NCBI GenBank assembly: GCA_964349125.1
Contig: CAYGFH010000002.1
Coordinates: forward strand, 174,484-238,483
From: an uncultured Gammaproteobacteria bacterium
GTDB lineage: Bacteria > Patescibacteriota > Microgenomatia > UBA10105 > UBA927
Length of the DNA stretch: 64,000 nucleotides
Direction: 5' to 3'
Positions 37,901 to 61,900 of this stretch are shown piece by piece. Under the pieces are notes generated by a model. That model did not search any database. It saw only the letters and a list, made by a program, of their open reading frames with translations, and was not told where the DNA came from. Position numbers and translations under genes: made by a program. The first letter of the stretch is position 1. Each line of letters begins with the position of its first letter.

Positions 37901-40900
37901 TCAGAGCTTCTGTCCATTCCCCGGATGTAGGCACCTGTTTTTTTGGGTATTCGACAGGTTGGACCCTACCAACAGGTTCAAACCCTATCTCACTGGAAGC
38001 ATCGTGTGATACCGTCACGATATATTGATGTGCAGCTGCATCATGCGGCGCTCGTTCGAAGGTGAGTACATCACCAGGTCGGATTTGATAGGCAACTTCG
38101 TTTCTCAAGAGTTCTGACCCAATGTAGACACTTTGTGTAAATTCTTTTGGCAGACGGAGCCACATGGCGTCACCTGAAACCCCCATGTATACATATCCCC
38201 CATTGATCACTGATGGATCTGGAAGGCCATCCGAAGGAGTAGCGATCTGGTTTGCTACAGAGGTAAATCTCACGACTTCGTCGGGCGCATCTTGCGTAAA
38301 CCTGAATCCGTTAAAACTTTTTGTGAATGTGTCTGTGACAACATCATGATCCAAAGCCACTTCTACTGCTTTTCCATCAACAGTATAGGTAGCCTTCGTT
38401 ATGCTCATTTTTTCCAAAATTTCAGTAAATTTGGTTCGCAGCTGCAAGCCCACAGATATATCCGTTTTATTTGTTTCCACTGCTTGAGGATTGATGTCTT
38501 TTGTCAGATTGAAAAATTCCATAATCTGAGCAATTCGATTATTTGTGGATGTATCCAGCTTAAATAATGTCCCAATCACACTGTCCTCAAACGCGATAAA
38601 GTGAGATTTATATTCAGGAGACACGAAGTCATTGAGTACCTGTTCTCTAGCCTGCTTCCAGTATGTGCCATCTGTATCAGGAGTTTTACCAGCTTCCTGC
38701 AGCTCATACGCGCGACGAGCTATCATGAAAGTAATGGAGAGCGCTTCATTTGCCTCGCGGGTAAGCCAAGGCTCATACCTCGTTGTCATACTGTGACCAA
38801 ATTCATGCGCCACAAGATCGTCAAGAAACGCCTGTATTTTTTCGTCAGATTTTGCGAGCACAGCTGCACTCGCACGAAGAACAACCATATCAAAATCATG
38901 GTCATAAAATCCGGGGATTGTTTGGGTATACTCCGTAATCTGAGAATCTGTAGGATTTACCACACCATCAAGCCGCAGTTTTCTTCTGGCAAATGCACGA
39001 AGTTCCCGGTCAAACGATACATCATCAAGCACAGCAACTGTCCGCTGCAATACAGTGCTGTCCGATGGGACACGTGCAGCTTTGGCAAACGCAACGACTT
39101 TATCGACAGATTGCTGCACTATGCTACGCTCCAACACTTCCTGCTGAGTCAGCCACCGCAGCAGTGCCTCCTCGGTCTTTGATGATAAGACATTTCCGTT
39201 TCTTTCAATAGGATAATTATCAGGATCATAGATGTGTTGCCTGTAATACCCCTTGATTGAATGGTCAATTACCGCAGTATCAGGATCCGAAAGCGCGACG
39301 CTCTGCAGCGCAAACTTAGCCTGTATGAATGCGGGCGATTTACCGATATTCCGGATTGTCCTGTATGTTGGATAGAGAAACATCAAGAATTGATCCATGA
39401 GGTTTGCTTTTTCCCGCAATTGACCCGTCTTTTTGTCATATATTCGTCGATCGTTTATGACGGTTGACACATCTGAGACAATCTGCCCAACTGTGGCGCT
39501 CATTTTCATGAGTTTTACGGCTATGGAATCGTTGGCTTGCAATGGTGAAACTGCTTGCGATTGACTTCGTGCTACTCCCACTTCACTGTTCAATGTGGGT
39601 TGAACACCTACCTTGTTCATTGCGTCGATTATCACATTCCAATCTTCCGGCGGCGGATAATGACCGCTTGTCCTTCTGGTCATAAACGATGATCTATTCG
39701 GCAGCGGTGGCTCGATATTCTTCATATCCCATGCAAGCACAAACGTAAAAAAGCTGTTCAAAATATGATCAATACTTTTTGCTGTTTTTTCTTCCGAATC
39801 CGGCACTACCAGTTGTAATCTACCCTGATTTACCAGTTCACGCATCTGGGTTTTATACTTGAAAAGATCCTCAAGTGATGCAAGCATAACCAGATCCTTC
39901 CCGGCCATTTCCGGGTTCTTGCGTTCGGTAGCTGTGTGTACTGAGCGGGAGGTCACGATATGAAACCCGTCTGAATACACATCCAGATTGTCATATATGC
40001 GTCCGAGTAGACTGGTCCATTTCCCTTCATACCTCAGTACAGGCAGGCTTCCGATAGACATAAAGAATCGCCTCCAAGATGCCGGAAATACGGGATTATT
40101 AAATACTCTGGTTGCCCATTTGAGAAATTTATCCGCTCGTAAAGCGTTACCTTTGAGTTTTGTATCCGGATACAATAATGACAAATGATTGGGATTATTA
40201 TTTACAACAGACGCATCGCCTACGAAGCGCACATTTTTATACCGTTCATCTTTATATGTTTCAATACCAAACATTTCTACCGTGTAGGCACCGTAAGAAT
40301 GGCCTAGCATCAGTTCGATCTGTTCAGAATCTATGCCCAAGGCGGCGTTACCGATCTTTATCTGCCTGATCACATCCTGCACCACATATCGTCGACTCCC
40401 GCGAAGAATTGGAGGTTTCGCTTTATTTAACGCCCAATATGCTAATTTGCCAACATCTGTTACGTTATACCACCATGCCTGCAATCCGGTGATCCGTTTG
40501 TAATTCCCATCACTATCAAGCACGGGTTTTCCATCCTGCGTCGTCTCCACCACCCAGCTTTTCTTGCGCGCGGTTTGTTCTGCCCCACGAAGCGATTTGG
40601 CATCAGCAAATACAGGATTTTCTAGCGTAGATTCAGGAATGGCAAATTTCGAGAACAAGCGGAACACTTCCTTTGACGCATGGAATCCGTGGATAAAAAT
40701 GCGGACTTTCTTATTTTTATTTGCCAACATTACAGTTATTCTGTTTAGAAATTCCGGATGATCATTTTGTTGCAGACGTTGTAGCTCTAGGAGCGTTTCA
40801 GTCGGTAGTCGGATGGTAAGTAAATCAGCCGAATACTCTGCGCTGGGATCTTCAACATCAGATGAAATGGTTTCAAACTGAAAAATTCCGGCCCGAGGAT

Positions 40901-43900
40901 CAATAAACGCTGACTCTTGAACATAATATGCTCCTGGAGCAATTTGCATACTTACTGTCATCGTTTTTTTGGCTGCTTCTATGCGTTTTGCCGCGCCTTC
41001 TATTTGTGCATCGGCTTTGAGCTGTTCTTCACCGAGTCTCCTTTTTCGATAATCCAATAGCGCCCTTCCCACTAATCCCTTTTTTACACCAAAAAAATCT
41101 TTTTTCGTGAATTTCGATTCCACATCTGCATTCCAATACTCAGCGAGATTTGTCATATTTCTCTCTGTTAAGCCCAGTCGTTCCAGTACTATGCGCCCTC
41201 TTTGTGATGATGGATTCAGCAGTTCGTACACGGCCTTACTTTCATCGGACGTTGGTTCATGCCCTTGAGGGTCATTGGCAAAGTCTACAAATCGTCTGAT
41301 AATGTCCATAACCTGCGCATCCAGAGCGGGCTCATCCAAAGAATCAAACGCCCGTTGATAACCCACTTCCATATCTTCATGAGATGTCGCGCCTGGCTGT
41401 TGTTCGGATTGATCCAAAACAATAGGCTCAGCTGTAACCGTAACAGTTGCCAGACCTGTTCTCCCTATATATTTTTCACGCATATGTTCCGGGAGTTTTG
41501 ACAGAGAGAGCGCAATATTGCTATATGTGCTGTCGGGCACCAGGAGATACCATGCACTTGCCTCTGCGTCATACACCGCCGTTACATCAATATCTGGCAC
41601 AAGTGTGCGTAGATACTCAATGATTGTCTTAAACGCAGCACGCTGAGATTCATCTGACTTGCCATTTTGTGAGGTATCCTCCACACCAATGCGAACTGCT
41701 GTTACAAAATTATTATTTGCTTTGCGCCTGACGTACGAAATAGCATCTGCCCCGGTATGAAATACCCGAACTTTCGGCAGTCCCTGCTCCATAGATGAGT
41801 TAACAGTCAGTTGTGAAATCCGATCTACAATTTTCTTACGAACAGCATCAACATCGACCTTGGGGTTCGTTCCGGAAGCCATTTCGATTAATGGCAGGAT
41901 TGCTGCCTGTATATCCGGCGGAAACGTCGTATAAAAATCACTTACTCTTCCTATGAGAGATGTATTGGATCTCACAAGAGGGCTTGTCTGCGATGTCTCA
42001 AACTCTCTTTTATTTTTTATCGCAAATTGCAACTCCCTATTTACCCGTCTTCCATCTATGATAGCCGGAACTTGTAATCCATTTCTAAAGAATGTTCCTC
42101 CGAGGTATTTTCTTAATGCTGCGCTCACATCAGTCGGAATTTGCGTATCGCTGGCATTGTCAGATAATATAACGAACTCCACACTCGCAGGGCTCTGCCT
42201 CACTACGATTTGATAGGTGCTAGATGAACGGGTTGTACGTGCCAGTTCGGACTCTATGCGATGGGCTATCATACGTAACACCGTATCTCGAAGCATGGAA
42301 TTTTTTGGCATTGCAGCGACGATCTGATCAATGTTTTTTATAAGCAGACTGCCTACAACAGTCTGTCCCCCATCCCGAATCAAACCATCAAGAGCTACTT
42401 CATTAAACAATAAAGATTGTAATGCTTCTCGTGAATTTTTTGCTTCACGCATGAATGTGAACAACCGACCAGACTGATACCATGGGAAATGCGCACTGAC
42501 ATCTGATTCCTCTAGTACCTGCTCTGATGGATCGTTTAACGTATGATGTATTCTCGACGCCAAGCTGTTCAGGATAGATTGCACGGTCGAATCTCCAGTA
42601 GTACTTGGAAAAAGTGTTCTGAGGCTGGAAACTAATTCCGTCCCCAACCATTTTTCAGCCAGATCGCGTTGTTGGGAGGTGCTGACAAGCGGTGCTGACG
42701 GCGCTATGGGAGCATTCTGTGATGGCGCACTGACTGATTGCGTTGGCAGCCGTATTGCATCTCCCTGTCTTAAATTTTCATTTTTTTTTTGACGTATTGT
42801 CTCCGCCCGAGTTTCTATCGATGACAGTGTCTTTTCCATTGGAGCCAACACAGCATCTATGGTGTTTAATACTGCCTGTAGCGCTGCCCCCTGTGTGTCA
42901 CCGTTTCCTTCATATCCTAAGACCAGGAAATTCACAAACGATGCGCGATCATATGATCCTGACTTCACCGCAGTACCGATGGCGGTAAACAACGCATCGG
43001 GATTTATCCCAGACTCCAACAGCACATCATATCCGATAGCCGAAAAAATCATTTGCTGTTTCTCGCCTACTCCAATATTTGTTGCTGTGACGATATCTCG
43101 TGCATCTTGCAACCGACGCTTCAAAGTAAAAAACGATTCTCTAATGAGTGCAATTTTATCCGGTATCTGCTCTACAGGGATTTTCTCGAGGTCTGGAATA
43201 AATGTCGCCGGGAAAATCCATGGAGTACCGCCCTGAAATCCTTCTTTTAAGGCTGCTTCTATATCGCTTTTTGCGAGCGTGGATTGGTTTTGATTCAAGA
43301 GCAGGGCGCTATCGGGAGTAATTGCCTGCGCCACTTTTTGTCCAAACCCTTCCATATTACCCTCGTACTCGGGTGTGAATTCAATAACAGGTACGTTTCC
43401 CGCATTCGCTTTAATTCGGGCAATCTGTGCTTCAGGCAGACTATTAGCAACCACTATGGCATCAAGTGTTTGCAAATACGCCAAATCCCTATCCGCAATT
43501 GCCAGTGTCGTACTTGCATTCGCGCCGTCAAACTGGAGGCTTTGGACAATTCCTGAACCATGAACTGAAGCCGGATCTACAACCAGAATTTTTTTGTTTG
43601 CCAACAGCCCACTAGACACGGGTATTGCTTCAGCCTGGTTACCAGGAATCGTCGAGTCCTCCAAATCCGCCTCATCACCGGCATTTTTATATGCATTCGT
43701 TGTATAGTACGAGGCATCTGAAAAATTACTGCTAAACTTTGATCCGAACTTTCCATCGCCGAATGTTGCATTATACGCACGTTCAAATGGCGTGATATCT
43801 CCGGACAGTGCTGCGTCAAAAAATAGCGACCACACCTCTTGTTCGCCCAGTTTCGAACTGGCTGCCAAGCGAATAACTTGCTGGATCAATTGAATTGTTC

Positions 43901-46900
43901 CGCGTTGGTATACGCTCGCTATATCAATAACAGCATCGTTCAGATATCGTTCTACATCCGATATTTTTGGACGCTGTGTTCCGGTTTGAAATATGGTCAA
44001 TTTTTTCCCTTTTTGTTGTGCTATCGCGATATACACCATCGCCTCATCCAGAATCTCTTTATATGTTGGATTATTTCCGGGATAACGCTGCGACGATGTT
44101 CCTTTTTGCGGTATATGGAGCCTCTCATGTAAAAATACGTGAATTAAGGCAGCTATCTGCTTTTCCTGTGACATTTTCGCTATTTCTGTATAGTTTATAA
44201 ACAATTCGGATACATCATCATCAGCATGTCTATGCAATCCGGTAAAGCCATCCGAGTACAGCTTTTTTGCCAATTCATTACTTACTGGATTTATGACCAC
44301 ACCCTTAAGATACTTTTCTCGTTCTTTGAGCGTGACCGCTGTGGAGGGTGGTTTTTCAAATAAGGATGAACGACTCTTACCGGTAAGACTTTCCACTGCA
44401 TCACCGAGTGAGTCAACTAACGCATCTGTATTGTTTAGCAACGATTTCTTGCCTGCAAATTCGGTTAAAGTGTCAATTGCAGCCAGTGTATGTCCGAGAA
44501 GCAAGTATATTTCTCCTTCACTGAGCTGATCAATTTTCTTTATCCCTTTCCCTTTATAATCTGATGTTCTTGTTATCAAACTATCTATTCTTGTTCTCAT
44601 CCCAATATCAAATACGGGGAGGACATGTTCTCCCATATCCAAACGGCCTATGACATATCGATAGGTTCGGTCAAGCCGCGTGAGCTTGTCTTTTTTGACC
44701 ACTCCAGAAAGCATTTTTTTTGCGTCATCTATAGAAATACTTCCAGCCTGATTATTATTTTCCTCTCGCACTTTTCTGACTTCCTCCGACAATATTTTAC
44801 GCAAACCGGACTGGGTATCCGCGCGCTGAAGTGTAAGTTCTTGCCTGTTTCTACTCAATTGCGCAACTATGCTCACACCGTTTGTGAGCGTAATTATTGA
44901 CTTATTATAAAGTGTGGTTACCTTTGCTTTTGTCTTTATCTTTTTCCCATCCACCAAAATTCCATTAGTAGATACGTCACGTACATACCACACACCGTCA
45001 TTGACAAATATTTCTAGGTGCCGTGCATCTATCGTTTGATCGTTGCCGTCCAATATTATATTGCTCACGTTTGCAGAAGAACCCAATGAGGCTATAGTCG
45101 ACCGGACATCGTTTTTATTTAACTTCGTTGTTGCGCCGTCTGTTAATATTTTTGTAGCTGTATCTTGTGAATATGAACGGATACTACCTGCTGACCCAAA
45201 AAATGCAACCTCTTTTCCACTCTTCTCATCTATCAACTGCATCCCACTGGATCCCTTGCTCACAATAAACGATGTGCCCCCAATGGTAAGTACATCCCGA
45301 TCGTTTAATAGCGTTTCTGAATTATACGCTTTTACAACAAGATTTATGTCGATCTGTGATTCTGTACTGACGTTTTTCACATACCAGTTTCCGTCTGCTT
45401 TTCGTACTATATTTACGCTCACAGCAGCTATATCAGTGTCCCCGCTGACTATGATGTCCGCTTGATTTCCTTTGCCGAGTGTAAATACGCTACGGATAGA
45501 GGGGTCTGCATACGTTTGCAACACGGATTCCCCGGTTTTATTCACGAACGCGTCTCTCCCATACCGCCCGATGAACGCAGGCGTCAACCGGATACCCGCT
45601 TCCTGCATAAATAGCGCAACGTCCGTGCGATAATCAAATGTAGTCTGATTCTTCGCACGACCGCTTATGATCCCTATATCTACAGCGTGGTCCTTTAATT
45701 TTTCTGCCTGTAAATCCTGTATGCCATACGACCACTGTTCTATATGCATAAGCGCTACGTTTCGCAACTGATCCATGGTCAATTTGGATATATCAGTGTT
45801 TCCAAGCATGAGTGTGCCTTTCAGATGCTGCGATGAATTTTCGAATCGTAACCCATTTTCGGGATCAAGCGTGTTTTTTCCTTCATCAACAAGCATACCT
45901 ACCCCTTCGGCAATTTCTTCTGCGTTCGATTTAGATAACTGAGAAATGACTTCCTCATATTTACCTGATTTCATCATTTCGATTGCCTGTTTTACATGAT
46001 TAATATATTTTTTCTCTCGTGCGTTCCATTTTGCAGACGAAAGCAGTGCTGGAAACGGATCTTTGAGCACCTTTGCCGAAGGCATAAGGGAGTCAATTTG
46101 AGCGTTCACGTCCGCAATCACAGCCCGTACCTGACTGACACCTCGTGCCAATCTGGCAATAGGCAGAACTGCCCCTTCCAGCGCATACCTGATATGCTCT
46201 AGTGCGCTCAGATTCCCCTGTGCTTTTTTGATCGCCTTCTCATAAAACTTCAACGACTGTTGTATGAATTTTGTTTGCGCCGTTCGTTTCGCGTCCCCTG
46301 TGAGGATCTGTCCCAATGTCTCTTCATTATATTTTGGAATATCCATCCCCAGATAATCCGTCAATTGCCCCATAGGCAGGAGATAGGTACTCATAGCTAA
46401 GATCTGTTCAGCGGAGGCACGAAGCGCTGCTTCTTTATTTTTGGGGAGCGATCCACCCATATACTCACCGTACGCAGCTTTTCCTGCTGCCATAAGCTCA
46501 TCTACTTGTACGCTTTGAATACCATTCAACACATCTGCCGGACCCGATTGCGCGCTAAACGATTGCTTCAGTGACTCCAGTAATTTTGCGTACATGGTCG
46601 CACCCATGATACTGTCGATTCCGTCGGCTGATATTTTTGTTTTGTTATCCAGCGCATCTACAGCCGCAGTTAACTTATCTACATCTGCTCCTGCGGATAC
46701 CACAGATGAGACCAATCTCACATTGAGCGATTCGATAAATTTGATGATTTGAGCAGGATCACTAGGTACATCAAACCCCAGATCAGAAAGTGCTATACCG
46801 ATCGCTTTGACATCTGCTGCATATGCGTCTGGGGCGATAATTCCGTTTGCGACTAAAGCCTGTATTTTTGAAAATATTCCTTTTTGATTCCCATCTGTTA

Positions 46901-49900
46901 ATCGTTTGTACTGAACTAATATGCTAGCCTCTACCCCAGATTTATTGAGAAATCCGTTTTCATCAACATCATCAGCTATTATCCCTGCTTGCAATCGTTT
47001 AATTTTCCCGTTAATGCTGTTTGTCAGCTTCACTATATCCTCTGCCCTACCAATCATGTCAGTCAATGGAGAAAGCCCGGTCATGACTACCTTGCGTATC
47101 TGTTCAGCTCGATCAACCGTTTGAGAGCGTCCAATGGCTCTAAAAAACGCCGGAAGAATTAATGAACTGGTATAGTCTTGAATTCCCCGTACGTTTCCAC
47201 CTATCTGCGTAATGATCGGCCAAATAACATTACTCCCGATTTTTGTAAGTTCCATTAATGAAGCTAAATCCACGGTGGCCACTGAATATCTTTGTAGTGC
47301 AATCGAGGCATCGATTGCTTCATTCATATCGGTGGCTGATATAGAGGTGAGTTCTGGTCTGAATTCCTGAAGCTGACTCTTGAAGACGTCACGTACCTTT
47401 TTTTTATCAATTTTATTTAGTGCGTCCAATTTTTCCTGAATTGTTACAGGTTTTGGCCGTGTTCTGTTCATCTGACTCACTATTTCTTCTTTGATAGTGG
47501 TAAATACCGTCAGGTGGTAACCGTCTTTTGCTTTTTCATCTGTCCATTGCAGGAAATTTTTGACGGCTTTGGCAAATGGCTTGGTTGCAGAATCTGCCGT
47601 CATGGCGGATGAGAATTGTGCTTTATCCAGCTTTCGTATATACGAAGCAAGTCCGGTATAGGTCGTTGCACTTGTCTTCGCCAGACCTAATGATTCCAGT
47701 TCGTCCGCCAGTTTTCTCAGATCAGCCGTTGCCCATTCTTTATTAAGTAATTTTTGAGAATCTGATAACCCTTCAAGCGCTGTGAGATTATTTCTGACGG
47801 CAAGAAAATCTTCATAGACTTCATTCACTTTATCGGTTTTCGACGCCTTTGGAGGGGATGCCTTTGGCTTAGCCACTTTCGTGTCATACTGGTCGCGCGC
47901 CTTGGTTTCCATACTTATTGCTACCTTATCTACCCAAGCTTCATATACATCATCTGACACAGATCCCTTCGCGACAGCATTCCGTATCTGTGTAGTTAGA
48001 CTTCCAAAAATGAGCTTCCTTCCACTTTCCAATAGAGATACACCATACGCAATAATTTTATTTTGTTCTGCACTGGTCCATGCGCTTGAAAGCGCTCCAA
48101 CATCCTGCACAATACTGTTTAGTTCCGCAGTCAGGAATGTATCTACCTTTGCGGTAGGATCTACTGCCAAAAGAGCAGCGAATTCATCTGTAGCCTCGTA
48201 CTCTGCTCTCCGATCCCGTACAATCGTTGGAACAGAGCGTTTTGTAGACAAAACATCCTCAATAAAATCCCCTCTATATTCAGCTACATATTCGGCAAAC
48301 GCGGTGCGCGCGGCATCCTTTGCAGTGTTTGCAGCAGCAGGTCCAGGTATCTCTGTGACCGGAATTTGCACGAAATCACCATATTGTATATTTCGCAGTT
48401 GTAGCGGTGTAGCACCATTCATTTTTTGATATCTGGCGGGAGCAAGCAATTTATTCGCCGGATCGATAATAAATGCGATCAGATTGATATTTATCGTATC
48501 TTCCGCTGATGATAGTGTGCCATTTTTCACATAATTCATTTCGGTCTCAAATATATTTGCCGCTATGTCTTTCAATTGTTGTTTGTTTACTTCCGTGCTA
48601 CTAAGATCTCCGAACCCTCTTTGAATTTTTATACGAATATCGTCATTCAATACGCTCGTAAATCTCGTTGAGGTTGAAGGTAGACTCGCGGCATCAGCAG
48701 CGGCGATAGCCATATCTGAAGCTAACAGCCCCTGATATAGAGTGAATGCATCCTGCGCGGTCAGATCACCCGGGAGCTTGTTTTGATTCACTATCACCTG
48801 TGCCTTATCCATAAGCAACTTTCGTCCTGTCGGTGTCGCGTAATTACCACCTACTATAGCTGCGGGTGTGACCGCTTTTGCCGGTAATTTAGACAGTTCC
48901 GCCGCTTTTCTGTCCAGCCAAACGAGGAAAAGTTGGCGCGTAACATCTGTGGCTTTCGGTTGATCTGCGATAGCACTCAATAATGCAGCTTTCGTATCTG
49001 CTATGGATTGCCCCTGATTCACAGTTCCAGCTGCCACCGCTCTATCGGACGCCTCATTTAACACCGAAAGCTGTGCAATAATTCCTTCTGTAAATTGCAG
49101 TGCGTAGATCATTTTTTGGTCTTTATCAAAAACTGTATTGGTCCGATCCGGGTTTGTTGATCCGGGTACTGTCATCAGAAGGTTGACGATATCCAAGGTT
49201 GCTTTATCCGGTGTTTTTTTCAGGATTCCTTCTTCGATCATAGAAAGTAGCTTACCAACATTTTTTGCATCCGCGATATATTTTATCCACGCTGTTTTGA
49301 GATCGAACATCACCTGTGCTCTCTTTTTTGTCGGAGCATCTGTCAGAGCGTCCAATTCCTTTTTGTCTATCGCTTTATTGGCAAAATTTATCGCTTCTAA
49401 GGTGGTTGGCTTCGCAACCAATGCATCAAGTTCTGCCGTGGCCGCCAGATTTGACAGCGTTCCTTTTTGATTATATGGATCGGACGACCAGTACTCGAAA
49501 TATCCTCCGGGGGTAACCGATGAACGAAATAGATCAAATAGTATAAGTCCCAGACTTACTTTCGGTACCATGATAAGCGGCAATCCTCTACTTCCCAAGA
49601 ACCAGCCGGTTTTATTTCTCGGCGTTGAGAAGAGTAATTTACTAAACCATGAGTCAGTAACTTTCCATAAATTCTGCTTCCATTGTGGTAAATCATCAAA
49701 TGATGCAGGTGCAGGAGCAAATCCCGGAATGATTTTACCCACCGCTTCGCGCCAGGGAACATTTGCCCCAGTTGTATATACGGCAGGTGCTGCGGCGCCG
49801 GTATTCATATATCGGTCTACCCAGCGCATCACATCCATGATAGGAAGCCACCACTGTTGTGCGCCAAAGGCCACAAAGAATCGGGTAACTCCCCACACCG

Positions 49901-52900
49901 GCCATTTGAGCACATTGATAACAGGGTGCACTGTCGGATCATTCCACTGCGTCGGGAATAGCAGTTCGTTTGTATCGAGCAAGAATCTCCATGGAGAATC
50001 TTTAGGAATTTTCTCCAGGAAATGTCTACTTTCTTGGAGGAGCCAGAATGGCAACCCAGCGTGCAAGCTCACGGCACCCTTTGTGAACGTAAATGCTGTC
50101 CACCAGTACGATCCTCGGATGCCTGCCGGTACCAGCTGGGCTAACCATTCTATCCCGTTTGCACGAGGCCAGGATACGCCGTATGAACCAAGGAGTGAGG
50201 TAACTTTAGACCAGAAAGTATCTTTTACTTCATATGTACTATCTGAAAGCGTAGTAGTGACCCCAGCTCCACCGGTTGTTCCCGGGGTGGTATGTTGTAC
50301 TGCAGCAGGTGTCCGATTTCTGAAACGGTTGTTTATGACCATATTCAATACGTCCGTACCTATGAGTATGGGATTAAATCCTGATAGGCTCCAGCGGGTT
50401 ACAAGAGACACCGTTTTTATGACACCCCATGTCGGTGTTTCATTGTTCCCTAGCGGATTAGGCGACAAGATATATGCATGGATACCGTATAGATTTTTAT
50501 TGCGATCAGGAGCACTATCTGCAGGCTTTGGTATTACATTAATCATCGAAATGATGTTAGAGAAAATAAACAGTGACGTAAGCAAAGTAAATCCCCTAGC
50601 CCAAACAGTTGTCGAAACTGCTGTACCTGTGCTTACCGCTGTGGAAATGACAGGTGCAACTGCAAAGGCAATTGAGATGGCGTTTAATGTCAGGGACAGA
50701 CCGGCAATTGTGGCAAAAGCCCCAATTGTCCATCCACCCCATATCGTTATCTTTGCAAGTGTTTTTTGAAATCCGGTAAAACTATCTGACCAATCCATTG
50801 TTTGAGCGAACAGAGCTTGAATCGATTCTGCTGTTCCAGCAAATACATCCGCCACGAATCGTGCCCCGTCGTGAATAAGAGTCGGGATTATCAACTGTGG
50901 CACAAAGAGGCCTCCGACAAATCTGGTGCCTACCCATGAAACGGTTTTCCAGAATCGTGCCGGCGGCGTCAGGCCCTTTGCCCAGAAATTTGGGAAAAGG
51001 ATATTATCCCCTATCCAGGCGTGTGTAGTCTTAAATGTTGGATTATCGGAAAGATGAACTGATGTATTGTATACATCGTATGCAAGCCAGGGAACACCCA
51101 GTCCAAATGTCTTTGTAATGATAAAGACTGCTGTTCGCCCGGCTGAAATAGCAATTTGTCCCCATTGGAATTTCTTTGTAGTACCGTCATACAACTGAGG
51201 ACGCACCACTGCGTTTATGATACTCCCAAGCCATGAACCAGCCTTTGCGACTGCACCTGTGACGGTTGATTTTGTTGAAGCAGGAGCCACGGGAGAGGAC
51301 GAAAATATACCAAACACATAATTTGTCGGCACTTTTGTATCCACAGATTGAAGAACATTTGCATCGTACGCGTAGGTATAGGTCGTGACGTCAACTGGTT
51401 TTGAATCTATGGTCGTTCTTCCGGCAATTCGTGTCGTCCCAATGAACCGACTGTTGGCATCTCTATACGCTGCGCTCAGTCCGACATCCAGACCTACTAC
51501 GGTTCCGTTATGATACACCGGATCTTTGAGAATGTTATGACCATGATACAGGACGGGTGCGGTAAATATGCCACGATATGCATCAGAAATCGCACGACTG
51601 GAACTGAATTGACCATGATGCGTCAAACTGCGAAACAGCGTACGCAGTTGAGGCACGCTTGCTAGCCGTATTTGTGCCCGAATACCGGCATTTATCCGTC
51701 TAACCACGTCTTCCGGAGTCAGTTTTTCTGCTTTAACTCGCGCTGCAATTCTGTTTATATCGTTTATATCCAATTCATCATAATCCTGCACGGCGGCTAT
51801 GTCATCACTAAATATAAACTTTGCATAAATAGCGGTATCGGTATGTTGCATGACTGATTTATCTGAGCGAAGCGATATCCAAGATAGGTTTTCCAACCAT
51901 CCGCGGATTAATCCAAGGTGCTTCTTTGCGATCGCTACTTCTCTCCTTGAAACACCGTTTCTTTGGAATAAATCCCATCTTGGCGAATTATCCGGCTCAA
52001 ACATCGCCCAGAGGAATTCCACTTCATGGTTGCCGCCAAGCATGGTAAATTCTGATCCTGCAGCTTCAGCCTGAGACTTGAGTGCCGTTAGACGATTGAG
52101 TATTTCAAGGCCGGGATAATACTTATCTTTTTTGCGGGCCGGATCGTTTTCCAAGAAAGCCTGTATGTTGCCATCTTTATCTACACCACGGTCCATATAA
52201 TCGCCGAGGAATATCACCTTCGCGCTATTGCCCCCTACCCACTCCCAACTGCCGTCAGATTTCACGGTAATCAGATTATCGGCCTCGAGCATCTGTTGAA
52301 GCTTGGTTACATCTGAATGATAATCCGCATACATATACCTGAGCGTTTCCGCCTGTGTTTCGGTAACTTTGACTGTTTTTTGTGTTACTGTCTTTGTGCT
52401 CGTCAAACCGGCCATAATTGCCGTCGTGATTGTGGCAAAGTTCGGATCGACAACCTTTGTGACAAACTCATCGTACGCTGCTTTCGCTTCGGCCTGCGTC
52501 AATCCTGCGGCGGTCAGCTTCGCCAGTATAGTTGTAGTATATGCAGTATTACTAAATCCACTCTTAAATATCCCGGACCTGACAATGACCTCCACCTGCT
52601 CTGCTGCCTCATCAGGACGAAGCGGTGTATCTTTGAGCTTGGCAACTTCTGCAAGGATAGCTGCCCGCTGTGAGGCAATCAGTTCAGCATAGGCCGTTCG
52701 TAGAATCGCGAGCGCGTCCGTATTCTTTTTAGCTTTCTCGGCCGCAATTGCAGGATCCACCACAGGGGCAACGACTGGTGGCGCAGAGATTGGTGGTGCT
52801 GAAACTGGCGGTGTAGTGACTTTTACAGAATTTAACACCGGCTGTGTCAATGAGTCTAACCATGCAGTATAGTCGATAACTGTTGCATCACTCTGCAATT

Positions 52901-55900
52901 TCGGCAGAGATGCCAACAACGTTTCTTTTCCTGCGAATTTTGCCTCCATATAGGCTCGGATATTTGCGTCTTCGTCAATTGGCACATCATCCCGCGCTTT
53001 AGCCATCACACGTGCTTGAAATATAGCGACCAATTCATCATCATCGGTCAACAAAGACCCAGTTAATCCAAGTCTCGTAAACTCGGTCTGTAATGATTCT
53101 TTAATCACTTCAATGTATGCAGTGTAGAGCGTCGTCAAATTTATAGTTGTTTGGAGAGTACTGTTTGAGGCGACCAGCTTTTGGTATGCATCATTGGCTT
53201 CGATAACCGATGGAGCATAGACAGATCTTCGAATGTGTGCACCGGAATCTGCATCGCTAACACGCGCAAGCAACTTCCCACCCAGTATTCCTAGTGGTTT
53301 TTTACGGCCACTTTTCTCTGCATAAAATACGATCGTGTCATCAAAATTTAGCACTCCCCCGTTTGTTGGTATTCTCCGTCTTGTTGTATCAGTTCCGATT
53401 GTGTACCACACATCTCTATCAAGCGTCAGGGCGATCACATTCCCTTTTCCGCTGACCACATCTACAACAGGTATCACATCACCTTGGCGCAAGCTTCGTT
53501 TCGCCGCTTTTTGGAGGGAGACATTCCCGGCATTTGCTGATTGCGCATCTACAACGGCTTCCCATGCAGTGGCAAGCGCATCTTGTTCTGGCAATGCTTC
53601 AATTTGGGCGGCTATAAGCCCTGTCAAAATATCGGAGCGCTGTTGTGGGGTCTTCGTGCCTGTGATTCCAGCCGCGGCAATACCCTGCGCAATTGCGGCA
53701 GCACGAACAGCAGCGTCTGATAATGTCGTATCAATAGGTACACCTGCAACAGGTGGGATAACTGTCGCTGGGGCACCAAGTGGTGGCACAATTGTCGTAC
53801 CGCCGATGCCTTGCAACTCTCTGCGAACTCGAGCAGCATCTGCAAGCATGCCGCCAATCCTGGAATATCCTGTGTTATGTTGCCTTGCATCTATAAGGTA
53901 ATGCACAACATCGACGATAAATCCGACGCCACCGGTGGCAAATTGCCTGACTATGAGCGCCCTCCACTGTCTCGTGCGCTCTGCGGCTGACCATTTTGGA
54001 TTCCATGGTGATGGCAATAGTACGTAGTTCATGAGCATGTCTCGAACAGATGTGGTAGGAACAGAAATGCCGACGATGCCACTTATGTCAGCCATAGGCA
54101 CTGAGGAGACTCTCGCAGCCGCTATTTGTGCGACGCTGACCGCAGACCCTAGCGCATCACCTAGCAGCTGCGCTCGAAGGCCATCTTCACCCATAGCTCT
54201 CACAGTGGATAATCGTGTTGCAGTAAATAGTGCATGTACTTCTTTATCAAATGAGGCTTTTGCAGATGGATTCACTAATGTTTCCAGTACCTCCGGAGTG
54301 ATATTCGGATTGCTGTTTCGTTGCGCAGCTTGCTGTATAGCATCAATATAGGCGACAGTTGCGTTTTCCAATGCCGTAGTTGACTGAGAGCTACCGGTAA
54401 ACACCTGTCTGACACGCCCTCTGATATCCTGATCAAATATCTGATCAAAAGCTATAACTTGGGCCTCTGCTCTATCTACTGTTTCCTGCGCGATGGCTAT
54501 ATCACCAAATGCAGTCGCAGCAGAAGAGACATTTGATCGTTGTATGGTCGATGATGGCTTAATTTCTACCGTATTTGCGCTTCTTTGGAGCGCGCGAATC
54601 TTTGCTGCGCGACTACCCTTTAGAGTTGGTTTTCTGGTACCCGGCTTTATGTAAAATGTTGCGTAGGTGTCGAAATCACCTAATGTCATAGCACTGACTG
54701 AGATTTCGGTTACGCCGCCTCGTGGTCCGACGAGTATCATGCGGCCGTCATCTGCCACCGGTATATTACTTATTCTATCACCTGTCTCAAAAATCTTCCC
54801 GACCATATCTATGCCTTTTACCGTGGCGACCTGGGTACCCGCAGTTTGCGCAAGTGCATCGCGGTTTCTTTCTGCGGATATTTGAAGTGAAAGCGCTGCA
54901 GCACGACCGGCCATAAATGTATTTCGCTCTTCATCTGTGATTTGCTGGCCGGTTCTGATTTTCTCCGCCACTGCCATCGCTGCGGTAATATATCCTGCCT
55001 GAACTTGCGCGGACTCGAATGCTGAGATGCTTCCTCGAGAGAGTGACGAGCTTATTTCCATATCAGAGTCAATTCGTTGAAGCGCAGGCAGCACGACCGG
55101 CCTCGGCCGCCAAATAAGATTTGCTACAAATGGAGCTCTGGCTTCCATAAATGTTCTAAATCCTGATTTGGCTACTGGTGTGGCTTGCTTCTGTACGACC
55201 GGCTTTATGTCCGGTTTACCTGATCCGGCTAATTGCTGCGCTTCTGAAGATGCCTTGACCGTGGCATTGTGTGCTCGTTGATACTCTCCCAGGTCACGAG
55301 CCAATAATGGTGGATCTTTACTGTCTATTTGCACACCTTCCGCAAGATAACTCAGTGGATTTGTTCCTGTATTTCCATTCATCACATCCCGATTGATTGT
55401 CAAACGCTTAAACAAATCCGGGCTGGAACGCTCAATTATGTCTAGATACGGTTTGTTTGCAGGATCGTCAAACAGTGCTTGGAATGATTTGGTCATTTGT
55501 GCGAATTGCTCGTTTCTGGCCTCGAGTGTACTTCTGGCGCTTGAAGTTGTACGGACGTCTCTACCGCTCGCACCTGAGGATAGATCTAAGAGCTTCACAG
55601 ATGCCCACTCGGCGATCCGCTGTGCTGCAGGATCTGAGGAGGATCTGTATCGCAAGATAATGTCTTCGAGCGGCTTCTTTGCGGCTGACTCAAGTCCTAG
55701 AGAATTAGCCTGTGCTGTGTTGAATTTTTCCAGCGTTGTTTGTGCATCGGCAATCGATTGTTTAAATGCAGCAAACTGCGTATCATTCATCTGGGCACGT
55801 GAAAGTGTAGAGAATTGTCCTGCCGTGTCATCAACAACGATGAGATATTGCGTGGCAATCCATTCTTTCCGATCAAGCCTACTGGCACCCTGAACGACAA

Positions 55901-58900
55901 CTCCTTGAGCCGTGTCTTTTGTCGTGATGGTAATACCCGGGATATTCTCTGGCGTTGGAATGTTATCTCCTGTTGCGCCTCCCCGACTGATGACGACGTT
56001 GAGATTTGCTTCACCACTGGCGAATCGTTGTGCCAGCTTTCCTGATCCTCCTGTCGCATCCGGAATTCGTTGTGACAGATTTCCCGTCGCATCTGTATAC
56101 CCAGCCTGAATGGATCCATCCGCGTTAAACTTCACGTCATAATACTCAGATCCTCCAACTTGAACAACCCACGGCGTATCTTTGGGATATTTTCCGCTCA
56201 TTTGCTGTCTTCTGGCGTACTCGATCGTGCTCATGTTGAGGTCGCCTGCAAGGACATGTTTTGCACTTCCATTGGAAGCCAGGCCATTCGGGCCACTTGA
56301 ATCAAGCTTCTTTCCTGATCTGATTGCAGCAGCTATATCGATAAACCCATCGCCTGAGGCACGATATGACCTATCCGCAGTTAGTCTTGGAGGATTACCA
56401 TCAGCACCGTTAAATATCTTGTCAAACGTTGCGCTGCTCTTGGTAACACCAAGTTGGTATGAGTTCTGCAATACGCCTGCTTGTTCTGCAATGCTTCCTG
56501 TCACGGCTCGGACCGCTCCGTTGGCGTACCCGGAGATGTCTGATATTACGTCGTGGAATCCTGACTTATATGCACGATCTGGAGCCACTTCCAATCCTTC
56601 AAAGTTTGGAGGCGTTTTCCCAAATGCAGTTGCACCGATAGCCTCCATAACAGCCTGCATTCGTGAATTATACGTTTGCCCTTCACTCATGGATCCGGAA
56701 TTCCCAGGGATTGTCACTAATCTTCCTTTTGCATCAAATCCTCTAAAGAATTCGGTGTCATACGACATGGTAAGCCCTGATGCATAGCGATTGGTCGCAT
56801 CCACTAGATCAAGCACTTTTGCGATATCTCCTTGGGGAATACCTAATTTCTGCGCTTCAACTGCTAATTGGGCCGGGTTAGCGCTTGCGGTATTAAGCAC
56901 CTCGGCATTATCGACAATCTTCATAAAGACATCGGTCGGGATTCCTTTTTTCTGTGCGAGCTTTGTGTATATGAGTGTTTGTGCTTCCTTGCTAAATCGG
57001 GCGTCTTTAACGACAACGCCGTTTGCATCGATCACTTTCACGATAGCTGGCTTCCCTCCAATCGTTTTTTTCACGCCTTGATCGGGTACGCCTTGCTTCA
57101 TAATGGCTACGTCGTCAGCGATCAATACGTCATACACATCTTTGGCGGCTCCGACTACCTCAGGCGGCACAACAGCTCTCGCCGATGAGGCTGGGTTTAT
57201 CATCTGAATAGACGGATCAAATGCAAGCTGGAGTTCATCCACGCCGAGTGCGACATTTGCAGTTGCGAGTCTATATATGTCGCCTATAAGTGAGCCTTTT
57301 TTTGCATCCAGCCCGTATGTCTCCAATGCCATGTTTCTGATAAAGGCAAGGTCTTCCGGTTCTGTCAGTAGGATTTTTCCGGATGAAAGTTGATCGTGAA
57401 TTCGTTGCAGATCAGCAATATCTCCTCGCAAATCATCTGATTTTAGCCTCACTACTGACTCCTCACCATTTGGCATAAGTGTGCGCAGTTGCTGTAAAAA
57501 TGCGTCTGCCTGCCCTTTTCTGGCCACGTAAATACCACGTTCACGACCGAATACTTCCACATCTACTCGCAACATAGCCGTAAGAACCACTGTTTTTCCT
57601 CCCGATGTGACAAGTTCCACGGCTCTCGCATTATCCCCCAACAGGGACATCATGGTGTCTATTTGATTGTTTTTCCATGAACGATATTCACCGTCGAGCA
57701 ACCCTAATCGAAGTTCGGTATCACCCATGATTGTTTCAAACGCAAGCCCTGCAGATTCATCTAACCCCTTGGGGAACACAACCTCCTGGGCACTCATTTG
57801 ATCAGCAAGGCGCTTTGTTAGACTGGCTATGAGCTTGCTGTCACGAGATTTTCCTTTTATCGCCAACGCGGCATCCAACTGGGATTTCGTAACCTGTATA
57901 TCCCCCAACAGGCCTAGTTTTTTGATAGCTGATTGTACATCTCTCAACTGGGAAAGCGCCTGTACACGCTCCCCTGCGGGCGCATTGGACGCAAGTTCCT
58001 GCGCCCTGGTGAGCGTTGTGCCAAGCGTATCCATTTCTGTCTTGATCTGAGCGTTGAAATCCTTTTGAATCTGATCCCTTTGTGCTCCATCTGTGGTTTT
58101 GCGTAACTGAGTATCCCGCTCGATTTGCAGGTCTGTAATTTTCTGTCTACTCGCAGCTGCCTGCTCAACAATCGAAGCTGCATCCCGAGCATTCGGTCCA
58201 CCCGCATCTACAATCTGTTTGGATGCGTCTATTCTCAATGCGACGTGCGCCTCCTTGATTTTGGCGATTGTAGTCATTTTCGCCACATCTGACGGATCAA
58301 TCAGAGAACGAACGCTCCCTTGTGTTTCACGAATAAGTGTGGCCTGCTCTTTCAATAACGCTCGTTTCTTTGTTTGAGACGGCGAACCGGCCAATTCCCT
58401 GTCTATACCGGTAAGCCTATCCAGCTTATTGGATATTGTTATGAAATTTGATTCCATGTATGCAAATTGCACCATGTTTTTGGTATTGTTCACTTGCGTT
58501 TCGGCAGCCCGGGCAATACTGTCAGCTGCTTTATTGATGTATTTACTGTCGGTGTACCCTGCGCTTTCAAGTGACTTCTTGGCACGCTCGAACGCGAGTG
58601 TGTATAATTCGCTTTCACCCGTTACGCCTCGTTTTTGAGACATCTCAGTATAGACATCACTGATTGCCTTTTGGACCGCATCTACATCTCCTGTATTTGT
58701 GCCTATTTTTGCTTTTATGCGGGCGCTTACCTCTCCGGCTGCAAGATCAGTCGCCACTATTTGCTCTGTGCGCTTTTGCACAAACGCATCATTGACTTGA
58801 GTCAGTTCATTTTGTGTTGTTCTCCCAATACGTATTGCGCCCGTACCATCCGGTCGTCCGATAAATCTCTCTCGGACAGCAGCTATGATGCGCTGAACAC

Positions 58901-61900
58901 CGCGTGCGGTATTGCGAGCCACAGTCAATTCTTGAACTTTGGAATTCAACAATGACACATCTGCGCTTAAGACAGATAGTTGCTCTTTCTTAAGCTGTAA
59001 TTTCAATTTAGCGTCAGGATCATTTGATCGTATACCATCAGCTAATAATTTGATCTCGGTTGCACGCAATACTTCAGACTGAAGAGTTGCGATACGAGTA
59101 TCCAGTACTGCCCGTCTCTGTGACAAGGCAAGTTGTTGCTGTGCTACTACATCCGGAAGAACGGCATCTCCAGTTACTACGCCCTGCGCATCCACAGTCT
59201 TCCATACATACTGACCACCTTCTTGAACTGCCTTAAATCCGTTCAAAACGGTAGCGTCTATCTCAACTGTTCCTACATTCCAAACGCCTTTGGCGGCATC
59301 CCAAACTGGTGCTCTTGAGGAATCCCCAAGCGTGTTGCGCGCCGAGACGGCAGCCTGTAATTCGTTTTGGGCATCTATGACGGCTTGTTGCGCTTTCGCC
59401 CCGCTTTCATCCTGAATTCTTAGAACTTCGTTCAGCAACTGTGCCCGATCTCTGGATAATGCAGCTATCTGATCCTGACGGGTTATAATATCTTCCTGAA
59501 TTACCAACTGCCTGGAAGTTAACCCGATGGATTCAACTTTCTGTCTCGCTCGAGATAATTGTTGCAGTGCAGCATCATATTCCGCGGTACCTACCGAGTA
59601 GTCTTTGGCGACGCCCATGAATTTTTCCTGGGCGGCAACATATTCTTGCTGTATAGTTCTCGAACCTTCACTTAACCCATCAAGAAGTCGTTGTGCGGCA
59701 TTTCTGGGATTTTGCATGAGTGCGCGTTCAGCCTCGACAGACGATCGATATATGAGTAAATCATTGGTAGCTGATTGGTAATCACGAAGTGCCTGTGCAT
59801 ACGCAGCAGCATCTGGAGAGAGTGCTTTTAGGGCTTCTTGCGAGAGTAAATATTTGGATTGCGCTTCTTTAAATTTCAGTGCAGAGGGCACATCATCGGC
59901 AATATTGGTTAGCGCTTGTTTTGCAAGCGCGAGCTCATAGCCCTGTGCTCTGATAGCAGTCCGTAGCTGCGTCATAGCAGCAAGCTCTTGTTCAGCCATG
60001 ACAGTGGGTAAACGATTTCCGTTTGCATCGTACATTGACTGTAGCGAGCGACTAGCTGCATCTAGCTGTACAGCTGCGCCGTCTTCGCTGGCCTGTACCC
60101 TTGGACCTCCAGATGTTGGAGTTTTCAGCCCAACACCAAAACCTACTGTTGCCAACGTCGCTTGTGATATAGATTGAGCACATGCACTCGCATCTAACCG
60201 TGCCGCACCAGAAAAACATGCGATACCAGCTTGTAGCGCGCCGCCGCCAGCGTCACCCGCATCAGCAATCTGATTTGTCACAAGCGCGGTTCGAGCTATG
60301 GAGGCTGGATTATTGGCACTAGAGATTAGTGATGCCCCGGATGAAACGATGCGGAATATAGATCCTGCAACCGCCACAGAGTTTGCAGCACAACTCATCG
60401 CATCTTTTTGTCGCCCACCGTTCCCATCATCATAGCCGATAAAACATGCGTTAATGGCTTCGCGGCCCGAGATTATTCCACCCGCGGCACTGAGAGCTAT
60501 GTTGCTATATTGAATCCCACGCCCTGCGCTCATTGTTAATTCTGCCGTTGTTGCAAGAGCGGCACCATTTGCCAGATTTTTGGCATTGTTCACCAGCTCT
60601 ACTCCTTGCGCGGCATTAATTGCAGCATCTGATACTTGAACAGTTTTTTGTATCGCCTGCTGTCCTAAGCTATATGTGCCGGCTATTGCACTAAACGGTA
60701 TCGATGCTGCCTGCACGGCAGTATTGAGACTTGCCCACCGACAGTCAGTCGATGCCACTTGACCTGGCACACACGCAGTTGCGGTACGCTCTAAACTGGC
60801 GGTTGTTCCAATAACGCTTGCACCGACACCGGCTACCGTCAGATATGTCATTGTGGTACCGGCTCCGGCAGCAATCAGCGGCGCAGCTGCCCACGGAGCA
60901 AGCGCTACTGCAGCAACTGCTACTGGAACTGCGGCAACAGGAGCACCTTTTATGAGTGACCCCTGACGGAATTCCGCCATTATCTGCTTTTCTTCTGCGT
61001 TTCCAGCGACTGAATTATAAATTGCGCGTGGTATGTTAAATGCATTTGCTGTCATAACAAGGTTTGTCATCCCTTGACTATCTGCATACCATGCATCTTT
61101 ATGCAGCTCCTGATATTGAGTAACTGCATTCATCTGAATATCATTTCCGCGCTTTACCGCCCCGCTGGTGAAATTATTTAATACGTTCCAAAATTTCATC
61201 CCGACACTAAAATCGTCAATAACTTTTTCTACATCGGTTGCGATCAATTCCCCTCTTTGGAATTGTTCGTATGCCTGCTGATATCCTTCTTCTCCTTTAA
61301 TATTTTGATACGTTGGCGCGACGTCTTCCCATGCGCGAATCTGTTCATTTTGGAAATCTTCGAATGTACCTGTGGGATTGTCTTTCTTATATGCATCAAA
61401 TGCCTTAAGGTAATTTGCATGATACCCATTTGCAGGATCAGAGAGATATGTCCTGACAGCTTCATCTCTTGCTTTTTCAAACTCTCTACGCTCTGCTTCT
61501 GTCTTGAACGTTGACGGATCTATTATTGCTTCGAAGTGTGCGTCTTTTCCTTTTCCTACCAATACAGGGACATAGTTAACCTGCATACCAGAATATGGAT
61601 CAATTCCGCTGCATGTTTTTTCATCAACAGTACAAAATCGTCTGGCACCTGTGTTTGCATCGTAGATAATCGCCCCATCGATACAGGCGCCGCCTCCGCA
61701 GGCTCCATTGCATTGTTTTGTGCTGACAACAGCACCGTCACCACGCTGTCCAGCTGTTGGATTGAATGTTTCTACAGAGTTTCCATCTTCTGAGCATCGG
61801 TTGTATGCGGTAGATTGCCACATTCCAAAAATACCACCTACTTTTACTTCCACTTGCCCGCTTCCTGCCCCAATTACAGGACATCCGTCTGCTCCTTCCA

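Follow-up and report, generated by a model that had tools for sequence, protein, structure and literature searches.

Among metallophosphatases of the PPP type, the closest described system to the domain analysed here is the cold-active enzyme of Shewanella (CAPTPase/PPI; PDB 1V73, 2Z72 and 2ZBM), the prototype of the Shelph/SLP group. It is an enzyme of about 340 residues, and the 2Z72-group enzyme is named protein-tyrosine phosphatase in its PDB records. Here, we describe a PPP-type domain in g1, one of two giant minus-strand reading frames (g1 and g2) that wholly fill a 64-kb window with 44% G+C; the window is the whole stretch of DNA that was analysed, from contig CAYGFH010000002.1. Residues 3845-4143 of g1 are likely to form a complete binuclear-metal PPP phosphatase domain with the Shewanella-like (Shelph) branch as its nearest relative. 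The domain has the same motif order as the Shewanella enzyme and shares with it the hairpin between motifs I and II (SDGSWEW in g1, SDGNWAF in Shewanella) and a motif I that does not start with glycine (ADYHS and SDVHG, respectively). However, motif IV reads QHTD in g1 and MHGG in Shewanella, g1 has two extra inserts (after motifs II and IV), and its domain is embedded, at residue ~3850, in a protein that exceeds 10,600 residues.

The nearest non-giant relatives are standalone Metallophos proteins of about 260 residues (P0005-P0018 and P0021-P0033), which align end to end with the g1 domain at 23-29% identity and come from metagenome-assembled genomes whose titles name Deinococcales, Dermatophilaceae, Campylobacterales and further groups. 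With the g1 domain they have in common QH(A/S)D, HGHT, an xDGxxSxxY tail and a tryptophan-containing hairpin, but they have the canonical GDIHGD, contain neither insert and are uncharacterised single-domain proteins. The preliminary description of this DNA had proposed ApaH/PrpE and lambda phosphatase for comparison. These have the same PPP core motifs and fold as the g1 domain, but they are clearly more distant than the Shewanella enzyme (E = 6.5e-11 for ApaH and 1e-6 for lambda phosphatase by profile; E = 2e-5 for ApaH by fold). The WipA and WipB proteins of Legionella pneumophila (5N6X and 5NNY) have bacterial-type PPP-fold domains, which were found among the fold and profile matches with weak similarity to the g1 domain (template modelling (TM) score of 0.33-0.36). 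The two proteins illustrate how the PPP fold can serve to act on another cell; a gammaproteobacterial pathogen delivers them by type IV secretion. No sign of export was seen here for the giant protein.

In the plant protein KAPP, a single polypeptide contains a phosphothreonine reader, the FHA domain, as well as a protein phosphatase, the PP2C domain. FHA and phosphatase domains likewise co-occur in g1 and in its long homologues P0001, P0002 and L005. However, the KAPP phosphatase is a PP2C (PPM) and that of the giants a PPP, the order and spacing of the two domains vary among the giants (60 to 2,100 residues), and the FHA domain of g1 lacks the canonical binding residues. Ser/Thr phosphatase domains have already been noted among the domains of giant proteins from Omnitrophota and other bacteria (West-Roberts et al., bioRxiv 10.1101/2023.11.21.568195). 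The Omnitrophota giants resemble the present ones in being very long, largely unannotatable and clustered open reading frames (ORFs), but the present giants have far fewer recognisable domains, and their relatives bear the label Patescibacteria or, doubtfully, Gammaproteobacteria; the two sets were compared by description only. The literature searched contained no account of giant FHA/phosphatase proteins from Patescibacteria. The unusual features of the locus are the position of a phosphatase inside a protein of this length and the tandem arrangement of two genes that each exceed 10,000 codons. It represents a rare family of giant, non-repetitive FHA/phosphatase proteins, of which five copies were found including that of the window, and the domain provides a concrete enzymatic handle on this almost unannotatable family.

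The phosphatase domain and its first motif

Six conserved elements were found in the correct order in g1: A-D3849-Y-H3851-S, G-D3890-YM-D3893-R3894-G, G-N3947-H3948-E, Q-H4009-TD, HG-H4111-N and L-D4128-VG (Table 1). GDYMDRG, GNHE and KSDGSWEW each occur once in the ~21,000 residues of g1 and g2, and they lie at g1 ~3870-3949 in the minus-strand translation, where the preliminary description had placed them. That description had recognised a PPP/calcineurin-like module in a giant gene, which was confirmed, and had proposed that motif I was absent and replaced by KSDGSWEW, leaving a choice between differently supplied metal ligands and a pseudo-phosphatase scaffold. Motif I is present in the sequence as ADYHSD, just outside the interval then considered, and keeps the Asp and His of the predicted metal-binding pair. 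Because motif I is present, with Asp3849 and His3851 aligned to the D and H of GDxHG, the proposed choice falls.

PF00149 (Metallophos) alone gave 18.2 bits (E = 0.0035), below its gathering threshold of 21.5 bits, and covered profile positions 34-124 of 191, corresponding to motif II to just past motif IV. This alignment, suggested earlier as a check, thus recovered motifs II to IV and did not reach motif I, which makes the earlier doubt about motif I understandable. Additionally, an independent hidden Markov model (HMM) was built from 24 standalone Metallophos proteins of ~260 residues, with no giant sequence included. This model covers g1 3845-4143 end to end (positions 5-255 of 266; 63 bits; conditional E = 1.4e-21) and aligns ADYHSD with GDvHGd at high posterior probability. 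The similarity to Metallophos is therefore not confined to the two short motifs GDYMDRG and GNHE, since the family profile aligns the whole domain.

In the MAFFT alignments, YADYHSD of g1 (3847-3853) stood opposite IGDIHGD of the small proteins. The columns invariant in 12 sequences were D15, H17, G55, D56, D59, R60, G112, N113, H114, N137, G138, H175, D177, G276, H277 and D294 (alignment column + 3834 = g1 residue number), and D15 and H17 were invariant in all four alignments (A1, A2, A3 and A4). Motif I of the five giant-type copies reads ADYHS, ADVHS, ADIHS, GDVHS and GDTHA, with an unvarying DxH. The spacing between motifs I and II in g1 is 40 residues, compared with the ~25 expected, because a family-typical hairpin including KSDGSWEW is inserted between them. 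KSDGSWEW was not a substitute for motif I; its counterparts in the alignments were DSDGNWAF in the Shewanella enzyme and the element xxWiGG in the small relatives, with an invariant Trp column (W41 in A1 and A3).

The C-terminal His ligands of the PPPs (H139 and H186 of lambda phosphatase) are matched by H4009 and H4111 (columns H175 and H277). Specifically, motif IV QHTD was aligned to QHaD of the small relatives, and its context differs from the H(A/G)G of other PPPs, while motif V HGHN was aligned to vhGHT of the small-relative profile. At the position of LDVG, the homologue L005 reads LDFH, and the D294 column stays invariant. Substitution by Val or Phe in the (I/L/V)D(S/T)G motif has been described for most Shelphs (Andreeva & Kutuzov, PMC535813). 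Besides the insert after motif II, a second giant-type insert follows motif IV (g1 ~4016-4052), and both are missing from the small relatives in the MAFFT alignments.

Structure prediction, which had also been suggested, was in agreement with a metallophosphatase fold. The AlphaFold2 (AF2) model of the domain, based on a 16-sequence alignment, had a mean predicted local distance difference test (pLDDT) value of 75.9 and a predicted TM-score of 0.78. From strand 1 and motif I through strand 2, the pLDDT was 84-95; motif I lies at the end of strand E10-13, and strands E33-35 and E41-43 form at the KSDGSWEW hairpin. The top Foldseek matches in the PDB were the Shewanella cold-active protein-tyrosine phosphatase structures 1V73, 2ZBM and 2Z72 (E = 1e-8), followed by ApaH, PP2A, Legionella WipB and WipA, Pnkp, PP1, PP5 and calcineurin. 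Among PDB sequences, 2Z72 ranked first with the whole-family profile (E = 1.5e-31, profile 3-242) and again with a giants-only profile (E = 2e-4), which placed aDvHs on SDVHG. The great length of the ORF and the Pfam E value alone might suggest that the two short motifs arose by chance, outside any phosphatase domain. This is refuted by the full-length 63-bit profile alignment, a homologue at E = 3e-54 and the confident fold model with its PDB fold matches, and its probability is practically negligible.

As for the motif question itself, the domain appears to be an ordinary enzyme with no new metal-site chemistry, which the generic Pfam models partly miss. A failed literal match to GDxHG together with a sub-threshold Pfam score can hide a complete catalytic domain in very divergent lineages.

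NKG2-D and chitotriosidase, which were matched over the SDGSWEW stretch in a single-sequence phmmer search of the PDB, were dismissed as spurious chance matches.

Giant-type homologues

An exhaustive phmmer search of g1 3835-4160 against 1.84 billion representatives yielded 20 proteins. Two were giants, P0001 (4,366 amino acids; E = 3e-54; 43% identity over query positions 2-314) and P0002 (6,618 amino acids; E = 1e-27), and P0003 was a fragment of a giant-type copy. The remaining matches were mostly metallophosphatases, including all the standalone proteins of ~250-280 residues; a few were longer, several of them with unrelated repeat domains. Four standalone proteins were checked (P0005, P0006, P0012 and P0018), and all matched PF00149 over its full length (profile 2-188, 49-61 bits, E = 1e-12 to 3e-16); the family profile links g1 to these Pfam members. 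L005 was found by a profile scan of GTDB genomes, with 35% identity and an ORF that is open across the whole 16.9-kb locus. A profile scan of metagenome contigs gave no further giant-type copy and returned the P0003 contig again, as well as many small relatives. The exhaustive search was required, as a word-indexed homologue search with a 567-residue region returned nothing. Single-sequence searches for close relatives were likewise empty in collections of genomes, viruses and metagenomes, which do not contain the window's own contig. NCBIfam returned only noise for the phosphatase domain.

The five giant-type copies (g1, P0001, P0002, P0003 and L005) are related at 35-42% identity. DxH is kept in all four copies other than g1, and the three that span the whole domain keep the remaining ligands too. 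The phosphatase block was the best-conserved stretch between g1 and P0001 and between g1 and L005, and the second-best between g1 and P0002, while the giants were otherwise barely alignable. This conservation argues for selection on function and points to the phosphatase block as a site of function.

The strongest similarity between g1 and P0002 was a block of ~1,000 residues (g1 1911-2912, window 55134-58139) that matches P0002 1879-2872 with 31% identity (E = 3e-108) and has no Pfam or NCBIfam match. P0001 corresponds to NCBI MFC1653394.1, the sole named public homologue found, recorded as 'FHA domain-containing protein, partial [Patescibacteria group bacterium]' from the single-amplified genome (SAG) AM-311-P01. 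The P0002 and L005 records are titled uncultured Pseudomonadales and uncultured Gammaproteobacteria, whereas Patescibacteria is the title given to the syntenic SAG copy; one of these conflicting sets of titles is probably wrong. The window can therefore be called Patescibacteria-like only tentatively.

Predicted activity and substrate

The g1 domain is probably an active, divergent PPP phosphatase of the Shelph type, and neither a pseudo-enzyme nor an enzyme with an altered metal site. By analogy with lambda phosphatase and PP1, two metal ions would be bound through D3849, H3851, D3890, N3947, H4009 and H4111, and R3894 would contact the phosphate. The phosphomonoester would be hydrolysed by a metal-activated water, with H3948 and D3893 as the general acid pair. 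The Shewanella enzyme was the top match by profile and by fold with a wide margin, but the identity is only 18-19%, and a placement in the Shelph clade, read from this similarity ranking, is tentative. The motif set assigns the domain to the bacterial-type PPP phosphatases.

Several observations weigh against this assignment. The TM-score to the Shewanella enzyme was only 0.50, the PF00149 score was below threshold, both lineage-specific inserts were modelled with low confidence (pLDDT 53-59 for insert 1), and the geometry of the metal site is deduced from the alignment alone. Both glycines of GDxHG are substituted in g1 (by Ala and Ser), leaving the literal pattern unmatched. In addition, the Arg that the small relatives conserve in tDaR, which lies between motifs IV and V, stands opposite a His or a gap in g1, and one phosphate-binding contact may therefore differ. 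In the FHA domain of g1, GS and DARH replace GR and SxxH, with apparent loss of the canonical phosphothreonine-contacting Arg and Ser. A cytoplasmic position of the phosphatase module is weakly suggested by a crude Kyte-Doolittle hydropathy scan, by which alone topology was judged and which was not relied on. Finally, bacterial PPPs include non-protein phosphatases, for example, ApaH and Pnkp.

The substituted glycines of motif I, the low Pfam score and the unclear retention of the second phosphate-binding Arg would fit a pseudo-phosphatase, whose fold would survive for binding or scaffolding inside the giant protein after the loss of catalysis; the FHA domain without canonical ligand-binding residues in the same protein makes a decay of signalling modules conceivable. 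However, pseudo-enzymes normally lose some of the ligand or acid residues, whereas all metal ligands and the His/Asp acid pair are kept in g1 and, wherever covered, in homologues of 35-42% identity. The solved Shewanella enzyme, which is active, likewise departs from the literal GDxHG by lacking the first Gly (SDVHG), and few stretches of the giant proteins are better conserved than the phosphatase domain. A loss of catalysis thus appears very unlikely.

For an active Shelph-type phosphatase in g1, the substrate would most likely be a phosphoprotein. Whether phosphoserine/phosphothreonine or phosphotyrosine is hydrolysed is not readable from the sequence, since bacterial PPPs can be Tyr-specific, broad or nucleotide-acting and their specificity is unpredictable (PMC535813). 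The same breadth would be compatible with an active metallophosphatase for a non-protein substrate, such as a dinucleoside polyphosphate (ApaH/PrpE), a 2',3'-cyclic or 3'-phosphate polynucleotide end (Pnkp) or another small phosphoester. ApaH and the Pnkp of C. thermocellum were among the next-best sequence and fold matches, and the degenerate appearance of the g1 FHA domain points in the same direction. However, the best matches, by a wide margin, were protein phosphatases (the Shewanella tyrosine phosphatase and also WipB/WipA, PP2A and PP1), and a canonical FHA domain lies close to the phosphatase in P0002. Additionally, an ApaH-type enzyme is disfavoured because motif II of g1 is a canonical GDxxDRG without the characteristic changes of ApaH-type enzymes (PMC535813). 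A non-protein substrate is therefore considered rather unlikely.

An FHA domain occurs alongside the phosphatase in all long homologues, in variable order. In P0001, FHA (~3317-3382) precedes the phosphatase (3762-4079); in P0002, FHA follows ~60 residues after the phosphatase (5434-5702); and in L005, the phosphatase (~3340-3650) is followed by FHA at ~5149-5231. The FHA residues of P0001 and P0002 are canonical. The link would fit a phosphorylation-dependent regulatory role of the phosphatase inside the giant protein. That phosphothreonine reading is coupled to the phosphatase is plausible for the giant family and doubtful for g1, since the canonical Arg and Ser are lost there.

The two giant genes and their other modules

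Table 1. Features of g1 and g2 with their positions in the window
Feature	Residues	Window position	Strand	Remarks
g1, giant gene hosting the phosphatase		31947..63869	minus	10,640 codons counted from the first in-window ATG
Predicted PPP, Shewanella-like metallophosphatase catalytic domain	g1 3845-4143	51441..52337	minus	Small-protein profile, AF2 and Foldseek
Motif I ADYHSD	g1 3848-3853	52311..52328	minus	GDxHG variant; Asp3849 and His3851 putative metal ligands
KSDGSWEW		52239..52262	minus	Belongs to a beta-hairpin inserted after helix 1 and before strand 2; aligns to Shewanella DSDGNWAF
Motif II GDYMDRG	g1 3889-3895	52185..52205	minus	Canonical GDxxDRG; Asp3890 putative bridging ligand, Asp3893, Arg3894
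Insert 1, 25 residues, VDKDGNIQAFLENDPARKKDKYYPG	g1 3896-3920	52110..52184	minus	Giant-type copies only; gapped in all small relatives
Motif III GNHE	g1 3946-3949	52023..52034	minus	Asn3947 putative ligand; His3948 putative general acid
Motif IV QHTD		51837..51848	minus	His4009 putative ligand; counterpart of H(A/G)G in other PPPs
Motif V HGHN		51534..51545	minus	His4111 putative ligand; counterpart of GH in lambda phosphatase
LDVG	g1 4127-4130	51480..51491	minus	Asp4128; bacterial-type (I/L/V)D(S/T)G, Val/Phe-substituted
FHA domain	g1 6262-6328	44886..45086	minus	Pfam PF00498, E = 7e-14
Second, more degenerate FHA-like copy	g1 6110-6225	45195..45542	minus	Alignment
g2, giant open frame		2..31552	minus	10,517 codons; runs off the left window edge
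Kinase-like motif series GSGATGAV, AVK, HNDIYKPN, LADPF	g2 ~3115-3290	21683-22210	minus	Kinase-like order
GSSGRHTNVIGDYDFDF	g2 ~2815-2830	23063-23110	minus	Resembles G[GS]...DxD of polymerase-beta-type nucleotidyltransferases, by eye
GNAT acetyltransferase	g2 ~8896-8964	4661-4867	minus	Pfam PF00583, E = 9e-7

The g1 frame is open up to 63998 at the window edge, with no stop codon in 63870-63998; its true start therefore lies beyond the window. Residues 64-204 of g1 align with 169-312 of L005, and the two ORFs are collinear. This collinearity suggests that ~100 N-terminal residues of g1, probably including a signal or anchor, fall outside the window. The start of g2 is likely the Met at 31357, which is directly followed by a hydrophobic segment; the gene would then span 2-31357 and have about 10,450 or more codons. 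The spacer between g2 and g1 would cover 31358-31946 (~590 bp) with 35% G+C. Self-BLAST revealed no internal repeats in g1 or g2. Beyond the phosphatase region, the FHA domain was the single other Pfam domain in g1; NCBIfam gave only weak FHA-type matches and PADLOC no match for g1.

The only similarity detectable between g1 and g2 is a stretch of 28% identity (E = 4e-12) between g1 8206-8436 (window 38562-39254) and g2 8203-8409 (6326-6946). Because this stretch sits at almost the same distance from both N-termini, it hints that the giant gene was duplicated long ago.

The pairing of the phosphatase with a kinase-like module in the neighbouring gene, which the preliminary description had pointed out, is unproven. 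Kinase-like motifs do occur in g2, but the module had no Pfam match, no PDB sequence match and no homologues, and its single-sequence AF2 model was poor (pLDDT 37). The top 50 Foldseek matches of this model were all protein kinases, none of them significant (E = 0.06-0.6; TM 0.12-0.17), so the kinase-like assignment is suggestive only and these matches are a hint, not evidence. The nucleotidyltransferase-like motif GSSGRHTNVIGDYDFDF lies ~300 residues upstream of the kinase-like module, and Pfam gave nothing for it. GNAT was the sole g2 Pfam match that reached its curated score cut-off. Speculatively, g1 (phosphatase and FHA-like) and g2 (kinase-like, possible nucleotidyltransferase and GNAT) might form an apparatus of ~21,000 residues in an ultra-small, host-dependent bacterium resembling Patescibacteria, that is, a membrane-anchored, self-contained platform for signalling or host manipulation in which the phosphatase would play a role comparable to that of WipA/WipB. 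We regard this as unlikely; if true, the two-gene platform would account for several per cent of a genome of ~1 Mb.

In the hydropathy scan, the homologues showed one hydrophobic segment at the N-terminus and another at ~1,000-1,250 (972-996 in g1). A cluster of hydrophobic segments was also found at g1 ~4240-4780 (window ~49500-51200), 100-600 residues past the phosphatase and strongest at ~250-630. Similar segments follow the phosphatase in L005 (4084-4149) and are missing from P0001 and P0002; those of g1 and L005 include segments at a distance of ~250-450 residues from the phosphatase.

The giant gene adjoins lepA, rpsT, murJ, pilN, pilO and a gene for a Pur_ac_phosph_N/fn3 protein at the loci of both P0001 and P0002 (L001 1-10000 and L002 1-9131). 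This synteny is kept though the LepA proteins of the two loci are just 49% identical.

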